64,000 bases of DNA from Halarcobacter sp. (lineage in GTDB: Bacteria > Campylobacterota > Campylobacteria > Campylobacterales > Arcobacteraceae): NCBI GenBank assembly GCA_048571215.1, contig CP182352.1, forward strand, positions 2,144,001 to 2,208,000. The letters run 5' to 3'. The translations under genes and the position numbers were made by a program. The notes under the pieces were generated by a model. That model did no database searches and had not been told where the DNA came from. It saw only the letters and a list, made by a program, of their open reading frames with translations. Numbering within the stretch: the stretch's first letter is position 1; the number at the start of each line of letters is the position of its first letter. Shown here piece after piece: positions 1 through 5,616 of the stretch.

Positions 1-91
1 GAGCAAGTACTCCATCTTTACCATTGATATTTTTACCTGCAAGTAAATCTTGTACAGCTTCATTAAAATCAAATTGTTTTTTCTTTTCCAT
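1..91 (-). CDS. IS256-family transposase, N-terminus (runs off the window edge)
   Basis: Manual translation from ATG at 91: MEKKKQFDFNEAVQDLLAGKNINGKDGVLA, resembling the 'FDF..A...L..G....GKDG.L' start of proteobacterial IS256 transposases; AAGGA RBS at 101-105. Confidence 0.75.
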   Translation of the reverse strand, partial: MEKKKQFDFNEAVQDLLAGKNINGKDGVLA

Positions 92-150
92 CTATATCAA
101 TCCTTATAATATTTATTATATCAGACTGACACAGATTTTCTAACACTCCC
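1..150 (-). mobile_element. IS256-family insertion sequence, left end
   Basis: Minus strand from 150 reads GGGAGTGTTAGAAAATCTGTGTCAGTC, typical of an IS256 terminal inverted repeat, followed by the transposase start. Confidence 0.7.
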
Positions 151-197
151 TAATAAACTCATTATATATATAAATTGCTATGTTCATTACTATATTT

Positions 198-1817
198 TTA
201 CTCAAATAATTTATATTTTTTTACTAAGCTCATACCTGAAGAAGTTAAAAATGTACTACATTCTTCTTTTATTATAAAAATATCTTTTTCATCTAAATAT
301 TTATTATAATTATTTATTTTTCCCTCTCTAACTCTAAGACTTTCTTTATTTATGGTGTCTAAATCATATCCTGCTACACCTTTTTCAATTTCAACTTTCT
401 GCATATTTTCAAAACTTCCATTATTTATTGCTTCAATTATAATTTTATCATCAATAGGTAATTCTAAAAAAAATATCAATTTTTTTATATTTGTATAAAT
501 ATTTAAATGCATATTTTCATATGTAATAAAAAAATTTGTATTATCACTATTATCAAACAGACTATAATTATTTAATAATTCACAATACTGTTTTAAAACA
601 TTTGTATTTTTTATAAAATCACACAATTTTCCCTCAAAAATTTTCAAGCGATTTTTTTGTTGAAAATAATCTGATACAATAATTTCAAAAATATTTCTTA
701 ACAAAATTATTTTAGGGAAGCTATTTATCCCTTCACTTATATTTTTATGACTTGATATGATTAATGGAAACTTACTATTTTCATAAAAATCATATCCTAA
801 AATACCCTTTATATTTTCATATTCTTCATTTGGCATTAAAGAAAACATATTTTTCAAATTTAAATCTATATTTAAATTAAATATCTTATTAATATATGAT
901 GCAATAATAAATCTTAACCAAGTCCTTCCTGATTTTGGAATCGAATACAAATAAAATATTTTTTTCCTTTTTAAAATTGAATTGAAAAAATAGTTTTTAT
1001 GATTACTTATTTTTTTTGTAATTTTTGTTTTTTCTTCACTTAAATTAGGCACAAGTTTAAAATTTTTAAAACCAATATCAGATAGTTTTTTTACGTCAAA
1101 AAATACATGACCTAAATCTAATCTAGGGATTAAATCTTTTGAGCATGCTTGCATTGAAGAAGTTATAGTATTATTATTTTGATGAGATATTGTATTATAA
1201 CAAATTCTAGCCGTACAATTATAGGCACAATTAGCGTTTGCAAAAAGTGTAATTCTATCTTTGTTAGGTAATGAAATTAGAAAATCATCATCATCATTTT
1301 TATCCATTGGAATAACAATATTATCATAAATAGTTAATGCATTTATAACTTTTTCAAGAGTATTTAAATTTTTAATTAAACTTGCTTTTATCTTATACTT
1401 AGGAAAGTCTTTCCTTATTTGCTTTGCAAGTTCGTCATTTACACAAACTACAGAATTTCCTTTTTTATGATGCTTTTTAAGAAATTCTAAACTTTCTTTA
1501 TAAGTATTTATATCAAAAGAATGATTAGTTAAAGTCAATGAGACACCTATTGAGTTATCCATTAAAGTTTGAAGATGAAAAGAATCCAATGAATATTTTT
1601 TCTGATATATTCTTCCTCCATATAGTTTACTATATTCAGTTGTTGAACCAAAAATACTTTCAATACTTTTAAAAGGTATATACATATAAAATATTCTTAA
1701 ATAGTCCAAGATATTCATATCTTTTTCAATTCCTCTAGAAGATAGAGTAAATTTAAGGCCTTCAATATTAAAACTATTTTTTACGTCAGATGGTTTAATT
1801 AAATTATTGTTTTTCAT
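198..1817 (-). CDS. Fusion protein: N-terminal peptidase-U32-like (putative Fe-S) domain plus C-terminal PAPS-dependent sulfotransferase domain
   Basis: N-half has FGS..YGGR, IKAS, ANANCAYNC..RIC..C and IGFKNFKL, resembling U32 motifs. C-half has the 5'-PSB loop YSIPKSGRTWLR, LRN..E..VSDY (3'-PB), ITYE and RVREGK. Confidence 0.65.
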   Translation of the reverse strand: MKNNNLIKPSDVKNSFNIEGLKFTLSSRGIEKDMNILDYLRIFYMYIPFKSIESIFGSTTEYSKLYGGRIYQKKYSLDSFHLQTLMDNSIGVSLTLTNHSFDINTYKESLEFLKKHHKKGNSVVCVNDELAKQIRKDFPKYKIKASLIKNLNTLEKVINALTIYDNIVIPMDKNDDDDFLISLPNKDRITLFANANCAYNCTARICYNTISHQNNNTITSSMQACSKDLIPRLDLGHVFFDVKKLSDIGFKNFKLVPNLSEEKTKITKKISNHKNYFFNSILKRKKIFYLYSIPKSGRTWLRFIIASYINKIFNLNIDLNLKNMFSLMPNEEYENIKGILGYDFYENSKFPLIISSHKNISEGINSFPKIILLRNIFEIIVSDYFQQKNRLKIFEGKLCDFIKNTNVLKQYCELLNNYSLFDNSDNTNFFITYENMHLNIYTNIKKLIFFLELPIDDKIIIEAINNGSFENMQKVEIEKGVAGYDLDTINKESLRVREGKINNYNKYLDEKDIFIIKEECSTFLTSSGMSLVKKYKLFE

Positions 1818-1895
1818 ATAGTATAATATTTTATTTTTACTAATAAAAAGTTTTAAAAAAGCTTCTTAAAATAAATTCATAAAAAAAGGTAGCAT

Positions 1896-2807
1896 TTGTT
1901 TCACTATAAAGCTTTTAATTTACATCTATCAGTCCCATTTGAATGTCCAGAATTAATTGAAATAGATAAAAAAGAAAATGAGTTAGATTTAATATCAGTT
2001 TATTATACTTCATCTTTACCTGAAAAACTAGACAACTTTACCAACTCAGGTCCAACTTTTACTTCAAATAAAAATCAATTTTTATTAAATACAAAAGCAG
2101 ATGTAAAGTTTTTAGTAATAAATGGAAATAAAATATATATTGATTTAGGTGAAGATTGTACAATTGAACAGATGAAACTTTTATTTTTTAGTTCTGTCAT
2201 GGCAGCCTTATTTATGCAAAAGAAGATGTTAGTTTTTCATGCGAGTACCATAAATATAAATGATAAAGCTGTACTTTTTTGTGGAGATTCAGGTCTTGGT
2301 AAATCAACAATTTCAGAAACTTTAGTTAAACAAGGTTATAAAAAACTATCGGATGACATGAGCGTAATATATTATAATAACGAAAAACAAAAAATTATGT
2401 GCATACCATCCTATCCACAATCAAAACTTTGGGAAGAAAGTATAAACTTATTAAATATAGATACTAATGGATTAAAACATGTTCATAATAGATTAAATAA
2501 ATATTTAGTAACAAATAAAGAAAGTTTTTATCATAAAGAACTTCCTGTAGAAAAAATATATATATTATCCATTAATAATAAACAAAATGTATTATTAAAC
2601 GATATAGATAAGTTAAAAGCTATTTATGAAATTGAAAATCAGACTTTTAGAAAAAAATTTTATATAAAAGATGAATATCGAAAGAACTATTTTAATTTAT
2701 TCGTAAAAATAGTTGAACAAGCTACTATTAAACACCTATCAAGACCCTATAAAACGAACTCTATATCTGAAATTAAAAATATATTAAACAATGATTTAAA
2801 TGGATAA
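1896..2807 (+). CDS. HPr kinase-like lasso peptide kinase (PadeK/ThcoK type)
   Basis: FHAS, Walker A GDSGLGKST, LSDD and PSYPQSKLW motifs; lies next to a lasso precursor and cyclase; TTG start. Confidence 0.8.
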   Translation: MFHYKAFNLHLSVPFECPELIEIDKKENELDLISVYYTSSLPEKLDNFTNSGPTFTSNKNQFLLNTKADVKFLVINGNKIYIDLGEDCTIEQMKLLFFSSVMAALFMQKKMLVFHASTININDKAVLFCGDSGLGKSTISETLVKQGYKKLSDDMSVIYYNNEKQKIMCIPSYPQSKLWEESINLLNIDTNGLKHVHNRLNKYLVTNKESFYHKELPVEKIYILSINNKQNVLLNDIDKLKAIYEIENQTFRKKFYIKDEYRKNYFNLFVKIVEQATIKHLSRPYKTNSISEIKNILNNDLNG

Positions 2808-3639
2808 TGGTATTTATTGGATAGTATCATATCCTAAAAGTGGCAATACTTGGTGTAGGATGATTTTAAATAATTATATTGCAAACTTAAATGAACCTTT
2901 AAATATAAATCATTTAAATACAAAATTCATATCTTCAAATAGAAAATTTTTTGATGAGATAATTGGTTTATCATCATCAGATATGAGTGAAGATGAGATA
3001 AAACTATATCAACCTGAAGTTTATAAAGAGTTAATAAAAAACACAAATGAAGATTTATTTATAAAAGTACATGATGCATATATTTTTAATAAAGATAATA
3101 AACCTATATTTCCAGAAGAAATTACTAAAGGGGTAATATACATAGTTAGAAACCCTTTAGATGTTGTAGTTTCATATGCAAATCATATGGATGAAACTAT
3201 AGAAAATACAATTAAAATTCTAAATAATAAAACACATACTTTGGATATTCAATTTGATGAATTAAATATAAGATTACCACAATTTTTAGGAGATTGGAGT
3301 TTTAATGTAAATTCATGGTTAGATTCAAAATTACCTATACATTTAATTAAATATGAAGATATGCTTGACAATACATTTAGTACCTTTTATAAAACATTAG
3401 AATTTTTAGGATTTGATATAGATACAAAAAGATTACAAAAAGCAATAGATTTTTCCTCTTTTAAAGAGTTACAAAAACAGGAAAAAATACATGGTTTTAT
3501 AGAAAAGTCACCTAAAACTAAAAAGTTTTTTAATAGTGGTAAAAAAGATATTTTTAAGGAACATTTAACAGAAAAACAAATAAAATATATTGTATACAAC
3601 AATTTTCATTTAATGAAAAAATTAAATTATATTCATTAA
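2800..3639 (+). CDS. PAPS-dependent sulfotransferase (Sulfotransfer_1)
   Basis: WIVSYPKSGNTW (5'-PSB), KVH, YIVRNPLDVVVSY (3'-PB), IKYEDM, FF.SGK; overlaps the kinase stop. Confidence 0.88.
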   Translation: MDNGIYWIVSYPKSGNTWCRMILNNYIANLNEPLNINHLNTKFISSNRKFFDEIIGLSSSDMSEDEIKLYQPEVYKELIKNTNEDLFIKVHDAYIFNKDNKPIFPEEITKGVIYIVRNPLDVVVSYANHMDETIENTIKILNNKTHTLDIQFDELNIRLPQFLGDWSFNVNSWLDSKLPIHLIKYEDMLDNTFSTFYKTLEFLGFDIDTKRLQKAIDFSSFKELQKQEKIHGFIEKSPKTKKFFNSGKKDIFKEHLTEKQIKYIVYNNFHLMKKLNYIH

Positions 3640-3677
3640 AATGTGATGTATGCACTGCTTTATAAATGGAGGAAAAT

Positions 3678-3821
3678 ATGGAAAAGATTGAATTAGATGA
3701 AAATCATTTACAAGCTGAAAATAAAGAAACTTGGGAAATACCTGCAATAGAAGTTTTAGATACAGATGAAACAAAGGTTGGTGCTCCTGGTCCTTTTGAT
3801 GGAAGCGGGCCATACTCTTAA
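3678..3821 (+). CDS. Lasso peptide precursor, 47 aa (missing from ORF track): MEKIELDENHLQAENKETWEIPAIEVLDTDETK-VGAPGPFDGSGPYS
   Basis: GGAGG RBS at 3668-3672; WxxPxxEVL leader motif; Thr at -2; Gly/Pro-rich core with Asp8 and C-terminal Ser; directly upstream of the cyclase. Confidence 0.85.
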   Translation: MEKIELDENHLQAENKETWEIPAIEVLDTDETKVGAPGPFDGSGPYS

Positions 3822-3837
3822 TCTAGATTAAGTTATT

Positions 3838-5616
3838 TTGAATAGTTTTTTATGTGAATATAAGAAAAATTTTCTTTACCCATTTTCTAATAATGATAAT
3901 ATTGACACTTTCGAGTATAAAAATATAACTTGTACTATAGATAATAAAGATTCTACATATCTAGATATAAAAAATAGTTTTTTTTATATACTTATAGGTG
4001 ATATTTATAATATAGATGAACTTTATATATTAGAAAATCTAAACAAAGAAACTACAAGTAAGTTTGAACTTATCGAAACTTTATATCAAAAATATGATAA
4101 AAATATATTTGATATGTTGATAGGAGATTGGTTTTTACTTATTTATAATAGTGTAATTGATAGCTTAATATTTGCACAAAGCCATCTAGGTTTCTGTGCA
4201 ATATACTACTATATGGATGATAATAAACTTTTCTTTTCAAATACTCTTGAAAAACTTTTAAATATAGATGAGATTCCTAAAAAAGTCAATTATAATTATA
4301 TTAAAAATATACAACTATTTTCCATACCAAACCAATATAATGAAACCTCGTTTTTACATATCAAAACTTTAAATCCTGGGAAATATATGTATATAGATAA
4401 AAACAACTTTATACATAAAAAATATTGGTATCCTGAAAATCTAGAAAAGAATAAATCTATCAAAAAAGAAGAAGCTATAATTAAAGTAAAAGAGATTTTC
4501 ACTGAAGCTATAAGAGCTAGAATAAAAGATAAAACTATAGTAAGTTCAATGCTTAGTGGTGGATTAGATAGTAGCAGTGTTTCTATTATATCTTCAATAT
4601 TACTAAAGGAAAAAAATAAAAAATTAAATTGCTTTAGTCATATTCCAGCTTTTGATGTTGATAAAAATAAAATACCAAAAAATAGAATATCAAGTGAAGA
4701 AAAGTTAATATTAAAAATATTAGATAAATATCCAAATATAAAAGAAAACTTTGTAGATTCAAAGCAATACACAATACTTGATGGTATAGATGAGTATATA
4801 AATACTTTCAATGAAATACCACTAAATCTTAATGCTTATTGGTTGATAGATATTTGTAAAAAAGCTAAAGAATTAAATTCAGATATTTTACTGACAGGAG
4901 ATTTAGGAAATTATACAATCTCTTATAAAGGAGCTAAAAATAGTTTAAATATATTTAAATATTTTAAATTGTTTGGTTTGAAACATACCCTTAAAGAAAA
5001 AGTGATAAAAAAGTTAATATTCTACAAATACAAAACTATTTATACTATAAATTCTACTTTTATAAAAGAAAGCTATATAAATAAAAGATATATAAATAGA
5101 TATAAATTATTTAAGTTTAGACTTATCAAAATGAATTATTTAAATAATGGAAAGTTTATGTTAGCTGGGCATTATCAAAGAGCAAAGATTATGGGTGGAT
5201 TTGTATCACAGCTTCAATTAAATATAAGTGACCCAAGCTCCGACAAAGAACTTATTGAGTTTCTTTATCAATTGCCACAGGAGTTCTTTTTCAGTAAAAA
5301 AGGGGAAGAAAAAGATATAATAAAAAACTTTATGAAAGATTTAACGCCAGATAAAGTCTTGTTTCAAAAGAAAAGAGGACTACAAGCTTCTGATATTTTT
5401 GAACGTATATTATTGGATGTTGATAAAATAGAAAATATAATAAAAAACTTTAAAACAGATGATTTAGATTTTGAACTTTTCAATAAAACAAAAATGTTAG
5501 AAGACCTAGAAAGATTAAGAAAAAAAGAATTACCTTTAGAATCATTACATTCTTTAGTAAAAACTGTAGCCCAAATGAAATTTATAAATTATGTTAAAGA
5601 TAAATATAAAGTCTAA
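3838..5616 (+). CDS. Lasso peptide cyclase (asparagine synthetase-like)
   Basis: MLSGGLDSSSV ATP motif, LLTGDLGN, DP..D.ELIEF, KRGLQASD; no N-terminal Cys; follows the precursor. Confidence 0.8.
   Translation: MNSFLCEYKKNFLYPFSNNDNIDTFEYKNITCTIDNKDSTYLDIKNSFFYILIGDIYNIDELYILENLNKETTSKFELIETLYQKYDKNIFDMLIGDWFLLIYNSVIDSLIFAQSHLGFCAIYYYMDDNKLFFSNTLEKLLNIDEIPKKVNYNYIKNIQLFSIPNQYNETSFLHIKTLNPGKYMYIDKNNFIHKKYWYPENLEKNKSIKKEEAIIKVKEIFTEAIRARIKDKTIVSSMLSGGLDSSSVSIISSILLKEKNKKLNCFSHIPAFDVDKNKIPKNRISSEEKLILKILDKYPNIKENFVDSKQYTILDGIDEYINTFNEIPLNLNAYWLIDICKKAKELNSDILLTGDLGNYTISYKGAKNSLNIFKYFKLFGLKHTLKEKVIKKLIFYKYKTIYTINSTFIKESYINKRYINRYKLFKFRLIKMNYLNNGKFMLAGHYQRAKIMGGFVSQLQLNISDPSSDKELIEFLYQLPQEFFFSKKGEEKDIIKNFMKDLTPDKVLFQKKRGLQASDIFERILLDVDKIENIIKNFKTDDLDFELFNKTKMLEDLERLRKKELPLESLHSLVKTVAQMKFINYVKDKYKV

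Follow-up and report, generated by a model that had tools for sequence, protein, structure and literature searches.

What can a sulfotransferase be doing in a gene cluster for a lasso peptide? The question is raised by a locus at the beginning of a 64,000-nucleotide stretch of Halarcobacter DNA (the window; G000:C1:2144001-2208000 of a one-contig genome of 3.61 Mb; numbers with the prefix L are locus labels), in which an earlier note had described a lasso cluster with a kinase and two genes with sulfotransferase domains. The second of these genes, divergent from the others and encoding 539 residues, does carry such a domain, but its residues 1-283, which had escaped notice, form a separate domain resembling the U32 proteins (here called U). 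This U32-like domain is the newest element of the cluster. What is new about the locus rests on the U32-like fusion rather than on the pair of kinase and kinase-linked sulfotransferase (ST); sulfotransferase genes in kinase-bearing lasso clusters, of which the earlier note was aware, have been in print since 2014 (PMC4289311, PMC8498205). The locus narrows the sulfotransferase question, in that the common kinase-linked ST does not need a tyrosine and the rarer U32-like fusion travels with precursors that have one in the tail. We read the cluster as a complete, acquired lasso pathway of the pseudomycoidin/paeninodin type with an additional tailoring gene, a reading that, taken together with the tyrosine model given below, falls somewhat short of an even chance.

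No family of Pfam or NCBIfam matches residues 1-283. The domain has 85 relatives of similar length and 1110 representatives at an E-value of 0.001 or better, and its four cysteines are invariant across 84 aligned sequences. The structural model (pLDDT 93) points to the TIM barrel of the U32 proteins: the top match in two aligners is Mk0906 (5d88; Foldseek E 1.7e-7, TM 0.60; VIA Z 17.1, rmsd 3.4, 217 aligned, the next row having Z 11.3), and an Atlas match and weak Pfam matches point the same way. With UbiU/UbiV, RlhA, TrhP and Mk0906 the domain shares the fold and four invariant cysteines that start after the equivalent strand; unlike the known U32 proteins, to which its identity is 11%, it is fused to a sulfotransferase and stands in a peptide context, whereas their known substrates are quinone precursors and RNA. 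Some points speak against membership of the family. Only 10 of 84 relatives match PF01136, and weakly (best E 0.003), the 539-residue protein itself giving no match at the gathering score, and the cysteines are spaced CX3CX4CX18C (with CX3CX3-5C..C in 119 of 146 wider relatives), not in the U32 motif CX6CX15CX3/4C, from which UbiU and UbiV deviate too (10.1101/587956). Neither hhalign of U against the canonical U32 protein of the genome (0.2%) nor a sequence search of U against solved structures gave a link. Because the cysteine spacing differs and the Pfam cut-off is missed, we call the domain U32-like and not a U32 member. U32 proteins are iron-sulfur (Fe-S) proteins tied to a hydroxylation that needs no O2, depends on prephenate and acts on ubiquinone precursors and RNA (PMC10990095, PMC5727448, 10.1101/587956), although direct hydroxylation activity and in vitro assays were still missing as of 2024 (PMC10990095), and U is a candidate Fe-S hydroxylase.

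The motifs for the sulfuryl donor 3'-phosphoadenosine 5'-phosphosulfate (PAPS), namely the 5'-PSB loop, the catalytic His and the 3'-PB motif, are present in both sulfotransferase domains of the cluster. In the fused domain they are kept as S292/P294/K295/G297, H357, R374/S382 and R497/G499, all invariant in 13 fusions. The nearest structures to this domain are small-molecule SULTs, and the two-domain model has a pTM of 0.84. The arrangement recurs, as 35 of the 37 longer relatives of U (this protein included) carry PF00685, and named fusions of this kind come from Labilibaculum euxinus and Methylomonas methanica. The other 2 carry DUF4915, a fusion observed in P0183 and P0186, and 28 further relatives chosen by hand include fusions to PF03567, to PF13469 (in either order) and to TPR repeats.

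Loci with U were taken as the best 80 of 221 genome matches and split into the 21 closest and 59 more distant ones. Among the closest, a kinase and an ST were each found in 17, a lasso cyclase and a B1 gene each in 14 and the fusion of U with a sulfotransferase in 10, and the loci with a lasso kinase span several phyla. Some sulfotransferase stands no more than 5 kb from U in 21/21 closest and 13/59 distant loci. Conservation of the small open reading frame (ORF), which the earlier note had named as a check on its precursor, is seen in 15 of the 21 closest loci; five have no precursor in the DNA fetched, and L035 has no lasso genes. In the window, the leader of this precursor has Trp-15, Pro-12 and Thr-2, the same spacing as reported for the leader of the paeninodin-like PbaA (PMC13381572), from which we predict a cut before Val. 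The leader thus conforms to (Y/W)xxP with Thr-2, and the predicted core of 14 residues has its Asp within positions 7-9, forming a Val1-Asp8 ring followed by a six-residue tail with Tyr13 and Ser14.

The tail tyrosine varies together with U. The 15 close loci and the two U clusters of the host genome make up 17 lasso loci with U, in all of which the precursor ends in Ser and has a Tyr among its last five residues, the latter being true of 8/24 ST loci without U and 0/16 loci without ST; an additional precursor in L022, next to another B1/C pair, lacks a tail Tyr. The 24 loci are 22 of the 79 ST-family loci described below and 2 plasmid loci, with precursors picked by hand from motif scans, L147 excluded because it duplicates L145, and loci without a recognisable precursor left out. 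The 16 come from phylum genomes, plasmid hits and the host genome, and include L212, which has a sulfotransferase of another family, and L117, whose precursor lacks a tail Tyr; L115, L126, L207 and L211 were left out for want of a precursor. There is no large kinase-selected control set, because the kinase and B1 alignments are too variable for a metagenome scan. With kinship ignored, 17/17 against 8/24 gives a Fisher p of 9e-6, and no fewer than 3 changes on starred branches of the ST tree are required to explain the state with U. After correction for kinship the association falls short of significance: a quick tree of ST yields 3 independent pairs on well-supported branches, of which 1-2 are concordant and 0 opposite (2-3 concordant without L170, whose ST is very close to that of the U-bearing locus L026), and the sign test is not significant (p 0.25-1). 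Several of the contigs counted as lacking U are short, and U may lie past their ends. Paeninodin presumably has a tail Tyr without any sulfotransferase, which would weaken the contrast.

Taking fold, fusion and covariation together, the divergent enzyme may act on Tyr13, its U domain adding a ring hydroxyl without O2 and its fused sulfotransferase then sulfating the product, a step that we consider possible and yet clearly below an even chance. The hydroxylation would be modelled on UbiU/UbiV, which act next to a phenol. That the gene is a prototype of two-step tailoring, with O2-free hydroxylation of a peptide Tyr (probably with prephenate as oxygen donor) followed by sulfation of the catechol, is unlikely as a complete proposal. 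If true, the resulting lasso peptide would carry a sulfated 3,4-dihydroxyphenylalanine (DOPA) beside a phospho-glycosyl Ser; U32-type hydroxylases would gain their first peptide substrate, and lasso peptides their first sulfated member. Being soluble and having a peptide of 47 residues as substrate, such an enzyme would open U32 chemistry to in vitro testing, and O2-independent aromatic hydroxylation and sulfation would join the peptide-engineering toolbox. The proposed hydroxylation resembles that by CanE in canucin A in taking place near the C-terminus of a 14-mer lasso precursor, CanE differing as an O2-dependent Fe/2-oxoglutarate enzyme that acts on Asp (PMC9266682). The literature searched, which did not extend to subscription papers and large supplementary lasso datasets, contained no sulfated lasso peptide; words beginning with 'sulf' are absent from a 2022 review on how lasso peptides are modified, and a 2026 review has one, in its references. 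No paper joining 'sulfotransferase', 'U32' and 'fusion' was found there, and among the papers listed 'peptidase U32' was likewise without a match.

Several observations weigh against a role of the fusion on the peptide. The 59 more distant U loci are without lasso genes, the divergent gene faces away from the operon, and L035:9980-19897 (Sulfurimonadaceae) has the same fusion without any lasso gene, followed by a DUF4915-like gene and a gene for a 2427-residue secreted protein. The U32-like-sulfotransferase gene could then be a passenger that belongs to a module for sulfation or surface decoration, with a glycan, secreted protein or small molecule as its substrate, and the peptide would receive phosphate and hexose and perhaps one sulfate from ST. 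This account, which we rate as rather unlikely, is also favoured by the fusions of U to DUF4915, TPR repeats and other sulfotransferase families, by the GT8 genes (in 12 of the 21 closest loci) and further sulfotransferases that crowd the U loci, and by the absence of the fused gene from L127, the closest relative. It leaves aside that 17 of the 21 closest loci, from several phyla, have a lasso kinase, that all 17 lasso loci with U have a tail-Tyr precursor, and that two separate clusters of the host genome pair U with kinase and ST.

The kinase-linked ST presents a different picture. Its nearest solved sequences are Teg12 (E 2e-12), Teg14, SULT1A and StaL, the glycopeptide sulfotransferases among them being the nearest and yet a distant match. 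A metagenome scan with an ST alignment gave 567 confirmed stretches, of which the best 79 were taken as ST-family loci. A lasso-type gene is found in 52 of these 79 and in 38 of the 41 closest, the kinase lies directly upstream of ST in 40 of the 61 loci with enough flank, and U is present in none of the 79. In the 24 U-less loci, 22 precursors end in Ser, and the cores of 13 loci are all free of Tyr, several of these loci lacking aromatic residues altogether; we conclude that ST goes with the kinase and a terminal Ser rather than with Tyr. The closest relative, L127, shares the gene order B1-B2-ABC-N-K-ST, and its core is Tyr-free. A peptide tyrosine sulfotransferase would be expected always to have Tyr in its cognate cores, and Tyr as the general target of ST, which held perfectly on loci selected by U, failed on loci selected by ST and was rejected. 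The earlier note's candidate site Tyr13 is weakened to this extent, and no result favours its other candidate, Ser10. Given this link of ST to kinase and terminal Ser, its acceptor, with PAPS as donor, would most likely be the group linked to Ser14 (phosphate or hexose) or a Ser/Thr hydroxyl, an assignment only just short of even. Two findings do not sit well with a lasso role of ST, namely an Asn in its C-terminal PAPS motif in place of the Arg that most relatives share, and tandem sulfotransferases with no lasso gene in 12/79 loci. Tandem arrays of 2-4 ST relatives without lasso genes were observed in L151, L153, L160, L190 and others.

That either sulfotransferase directly sulfates an unmodified Tyr13, as the earlier note had supposed, with U having no chemical role on the peptide, is improbable. 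Teg12, Teg14 and StaL sulfate peptide phenols on non-ribosomal scaffolds, and loci with ST have a tail Tyr more often than those lacking it (8/24 against 0/16); the Tyr-free cores, several of them with no aromatic residue to accept a sulfate, are hard to reconcile with such an activity, which also leaves the conserved Cys domain without explanation. Tyrosine sulfation has a precedent among peptides made on the ribosome and modified after translation (RiPPs) in RaxX. The predicted PAPS-dependent sulfuryl transfer to a ribosomal peptide is shared with RaxX/RaxST, the sulfonated lanthipeptides (SslST) and the Thr-sulfated methanobactins, which differ in not being lasso peptides ('lasso' occurs 0 times in PMC11143521) and in that no coupled hydroxylase is mentioned for them.

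An adenosine 5'-phosphosulfate (APS) kinase is found in 11/79 ST loci, in L127 directly adjoining the precursor, and the host genome has cysDNC, which was observed together with further sulfotransferases within polysaccharide loci (G000:C1:2070509-2085915 and 692000-701000). With 8 PF00685 matches in the genome and cysDNC in polysaccharide loci, sulfated glycans are likely too.

The remaining genes of the cluster (Table 1) bear out its lasso type. The families that the earlier note had proposed to check are all present, with PF00733 in the cyclase, PF00685 in both sulfotransferase domains and PF07475 in the kinase above cut-off. The cyclase, whose best NCBIfam match is NF033535 (E 4e-44, 151 bits, below the cut-off of 525), keeps the ATP loop and lacks the N-terminal Cys of glutamine-dependent AsnB. 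In a fasttree phylogeny with long-branch warnings it groups with lasso-context cyclases, including one annotated lasso cyclase in Priestia (L206 counting as lasso context and not as AsnB), and 13 AsnB-type proteins form their own 100% branch; an ordinary AsnB, which the earlier note had named as a refuting outcome, was rejected on this placement. B2, the sole one in the genome, is above its cut-off and B1 just below. The precursor matches NF033524 weakly (E 0.002, 17.8 bits; cut-off 27), and it counts against the lasso assignment that cyclase, precursor and B1 each stay under their own NCBIfam cut-off.

Table 1. Features of the lasso cluster, in window positions or, for the genes upstream of and outside the window, in coordinates of locus L002.
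Feature	Position	Strand	Evidence
B1	L002:4300-4560	+	PF05402 E 2e-19; NF033536 79.7 vs cut-off 80
B2	L002:4547-5005	+	NF033537 67.4 vs cut-off 33
ABC exporter	L002:5007-6827	+	PF00664 + PF00005
DUF218/ElyC-like gene	L002:6820-7608	+	PF02698 E 8e-25
NTP_transf_5 nucleotidyltransferase (N)	L002:7601-8815	+	PF14907 E 1.5e-38
End of 1330-bp IS256 and right copy of target duplication	1..158	-	IS to 150, 8-bp duplication 151-158; NF033543 above cut-off
Divergent gene, 539 aa	198-1817	-	U32-like N-terminal domain + PF00685 C-terminal domain
Cytosolic-SULT-type sulfotransferase domain	198..968	-	PF00685 E 6e-18
U32-like TIM-barrel domain (U), residues 1-283	969..1817	-	four invariant Cys: C197, C201, C206, C225
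HPr-kinase-like lasso kinase (K), 303 aa	1896..2807	+	PF07475 35.4 bits vs cut-off 33.3
Kinase-linked sulfotransferase (ST), 279 aa	2800..3639	+	PF00685 E 3e-22; overlaps kinase stop
Precursor A, 47 aa	3678..3821	+	ATG after GGAGG ribosome site
Lasso cyclase (C), 592 aa	3838..5616	+	PF00733 + PF13537; SGGLDS ATP loop

By what is known of these families, B1 would bind the WxxP leader, B2 cut after Thr-Lys, C join Val1 to Asp8 and the ABC exporter secrete the product, all of which is probable. An HPr-like kinase stands beside a core that ends in Ser14, and lasso core and Ser14 phosphorylation have strong precedent by analogy, the phosphate site put forward by the earlier note following from PadeK, ThcoK and PsmK. 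In pseudomycoidin, the terminal Ser receives a phosphate from PsmK, and attachment of one or two hexoses depends on PsmN (PMC6993621, PMC9266682). By the same analogy it is rather likely that K acts on the linear precursor, phosphorylating Ser14, and that the nucleotidyltransferase, missing from the earlier note, leads to a hexose on the phosphate, predicting a phospho-hexosyl Ser whose bulk could lock the very short six-residue tail. The cluster resembles that of pseudomycoidin (psmCAKB1B2ND, Bacillus pseudomycoides) in C, A, HPr-like kinase, split B1/B2, NTP-transferase, ABC exporter and C-terminal Ser, and differs from it in its two sulfotransferase domains, U32-like domain, DUF218 gene, Val-starting core of 14 residues and Campylobacterota host. 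With the phosphorylated lasso peptides of paeninodin (PadeK), ThcoK and SyanK it shares the WxxP leader, the terminal Ser and the HPr-kinase homologue; the available accounts of these report no sulfotransferase function and mention no U32-like gene (PMC8498205, PMC9266682).

The host was rightly placed in the Campylobacterota: it is Arcobacter-like, and the nth proteins of its congeners group with Halarcobacter-named proteins. Sequencing runs carrying DNA of this genome are labelled sediment metagenome, and no RNA run was listed among them. All five ORFs named by the earlier note were recovered at their positions by an ORF check, and the cluster proved larger, with five further genes upstream of the window. 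The low G+C content previously remarked on is real, with 22.5% in the block against 31.7% in uvrB and 28.5% in the genome, where only 0.06% of 3610 windows of the same size are as low. The complete block from B1 to C measures 11.4 kb and is an insert at the uvrB-nth junction, because 22 of the 23 congeners with nth found (24 searched) have uvrB within 1.5 kb of nth. In several congeners this junction holds differing small inserts, as in an insertion hot spot (L215-L237). The insertion sequence (IS) IS256, of which the genome has 15 near-identical full-length copies, had been taken for the edge of the island; this was rejected, as lasso genes lie on either side and the copy, flanked by an 8-bp target duplication, sits at the nucleotidyltransferase stop codon and breaks no ORF. 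An IS-free joint and substitutions were looked for in contigs of four DNA runs, possibly from the source sample, and none was found; in a scan for promoters and terminators, matches were no more frequent than in shuffles (86 vs 97.8 and 1 vs 2.1, respectively).

It is quite improbable that the product is a branched-cyclic, unthreaded peptide or that the island has been silent since the IS256 insertion. Only six residues follow the ring Asp (5 in two related cores), but 14-mer lasso peptides are known in the canucins (PMC9266682) and bulky C-terminal groups have been proposed as a lock (PMC6993621); the IS splits the island and a sister cluster, L018, has an eroded B2 and nucleotidyltransferase remnants, whereas here all ten genes are ORFs and the IS lies at a stop codon. 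Least probable is that U is no hydroxylase but a helper of sulfuryl transfer (in donor supply, PAP/PAPS handling or redox sensing) and for that reason fuses to any sulfotransferase family, as its fusions with three such families in both orders, APS kinase genes near U in L060, L078 and L082 and the non-canonical Cys spacing would suggest, against which stand the hydroxylation to which studied U32 proteins are tied (save a reported collagenase activity), a gene of the Asp/Asn hydroxylase family in 9/59 distant U loci, often directly upstream, and the absence of U from all 79 ST loci.

In Gammaproteobacteria, U genes of a distant clade (L044, L046, L051, L053, L054, L064) immediately follow a gene for an Asp/Asn beta-hydroxylase and have TPR-sulfotransferases nearby; the two may form a pair of O2-dependent and O2-independent hydroxylases.

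The earlier note had called the lineage one not known for lasso peptides, which holds as to rarity and not as to uniqueness. B2 was above cut-off in 0/183 other genomes of the family and in 7/400 sampled genomes of the phylum, no close cyclase was found in the 183 (28 gave only weak AsnB-level matches near E 1e-21), and U was absent from the 183 and from the 400-genome sample. The seven phylum loci are simpler clusters, without ST in the DNA fetched, one of them on a 2.9-kb contig. No lasso study on Campylobacterota was among the top literature matches.

Besides the cluster of the window, the genome holds two more lasso-like loci. The second, L019:2871-13025 (G000:C1:762871-773025), has a precursor ending in Tyr-Ser, B1, C, K, ST and a stand-alone U32-like gene and is without its own B2; it also holds an Asp/Asn hydroxylase, a GNAT gene, three tail-collar genes, two more sulfotransferases and a GT8 gene. 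The third, L018:4522-10107 (G000:C1:604522-610107), is eroding, with B1, remnants of B2 and nucleotidyltransferase, K, a 39-residue precursor, an SGNH-like gene and C. U and ST are both absent from it, its intact precursor is free of Tyr, and a second precursor-like ORF looks frameshifted. Kinase-bearing lasso clusters of several phyla repeatedly have tail-collar genes next to them, for the most part as triplets and often accompanied by a GNAT gene (L124, L208, L022, L023, L029, L132, L146, L192, L203). In a Scalindua genome, L021:16776-18566 encodes a 596-residue sulfotransferase-kinase fusion behind a stand-alone kinase, and the precursors of L020 and L037 have their first acidic residue at core position 11, outside the usual ring size of 7-9.

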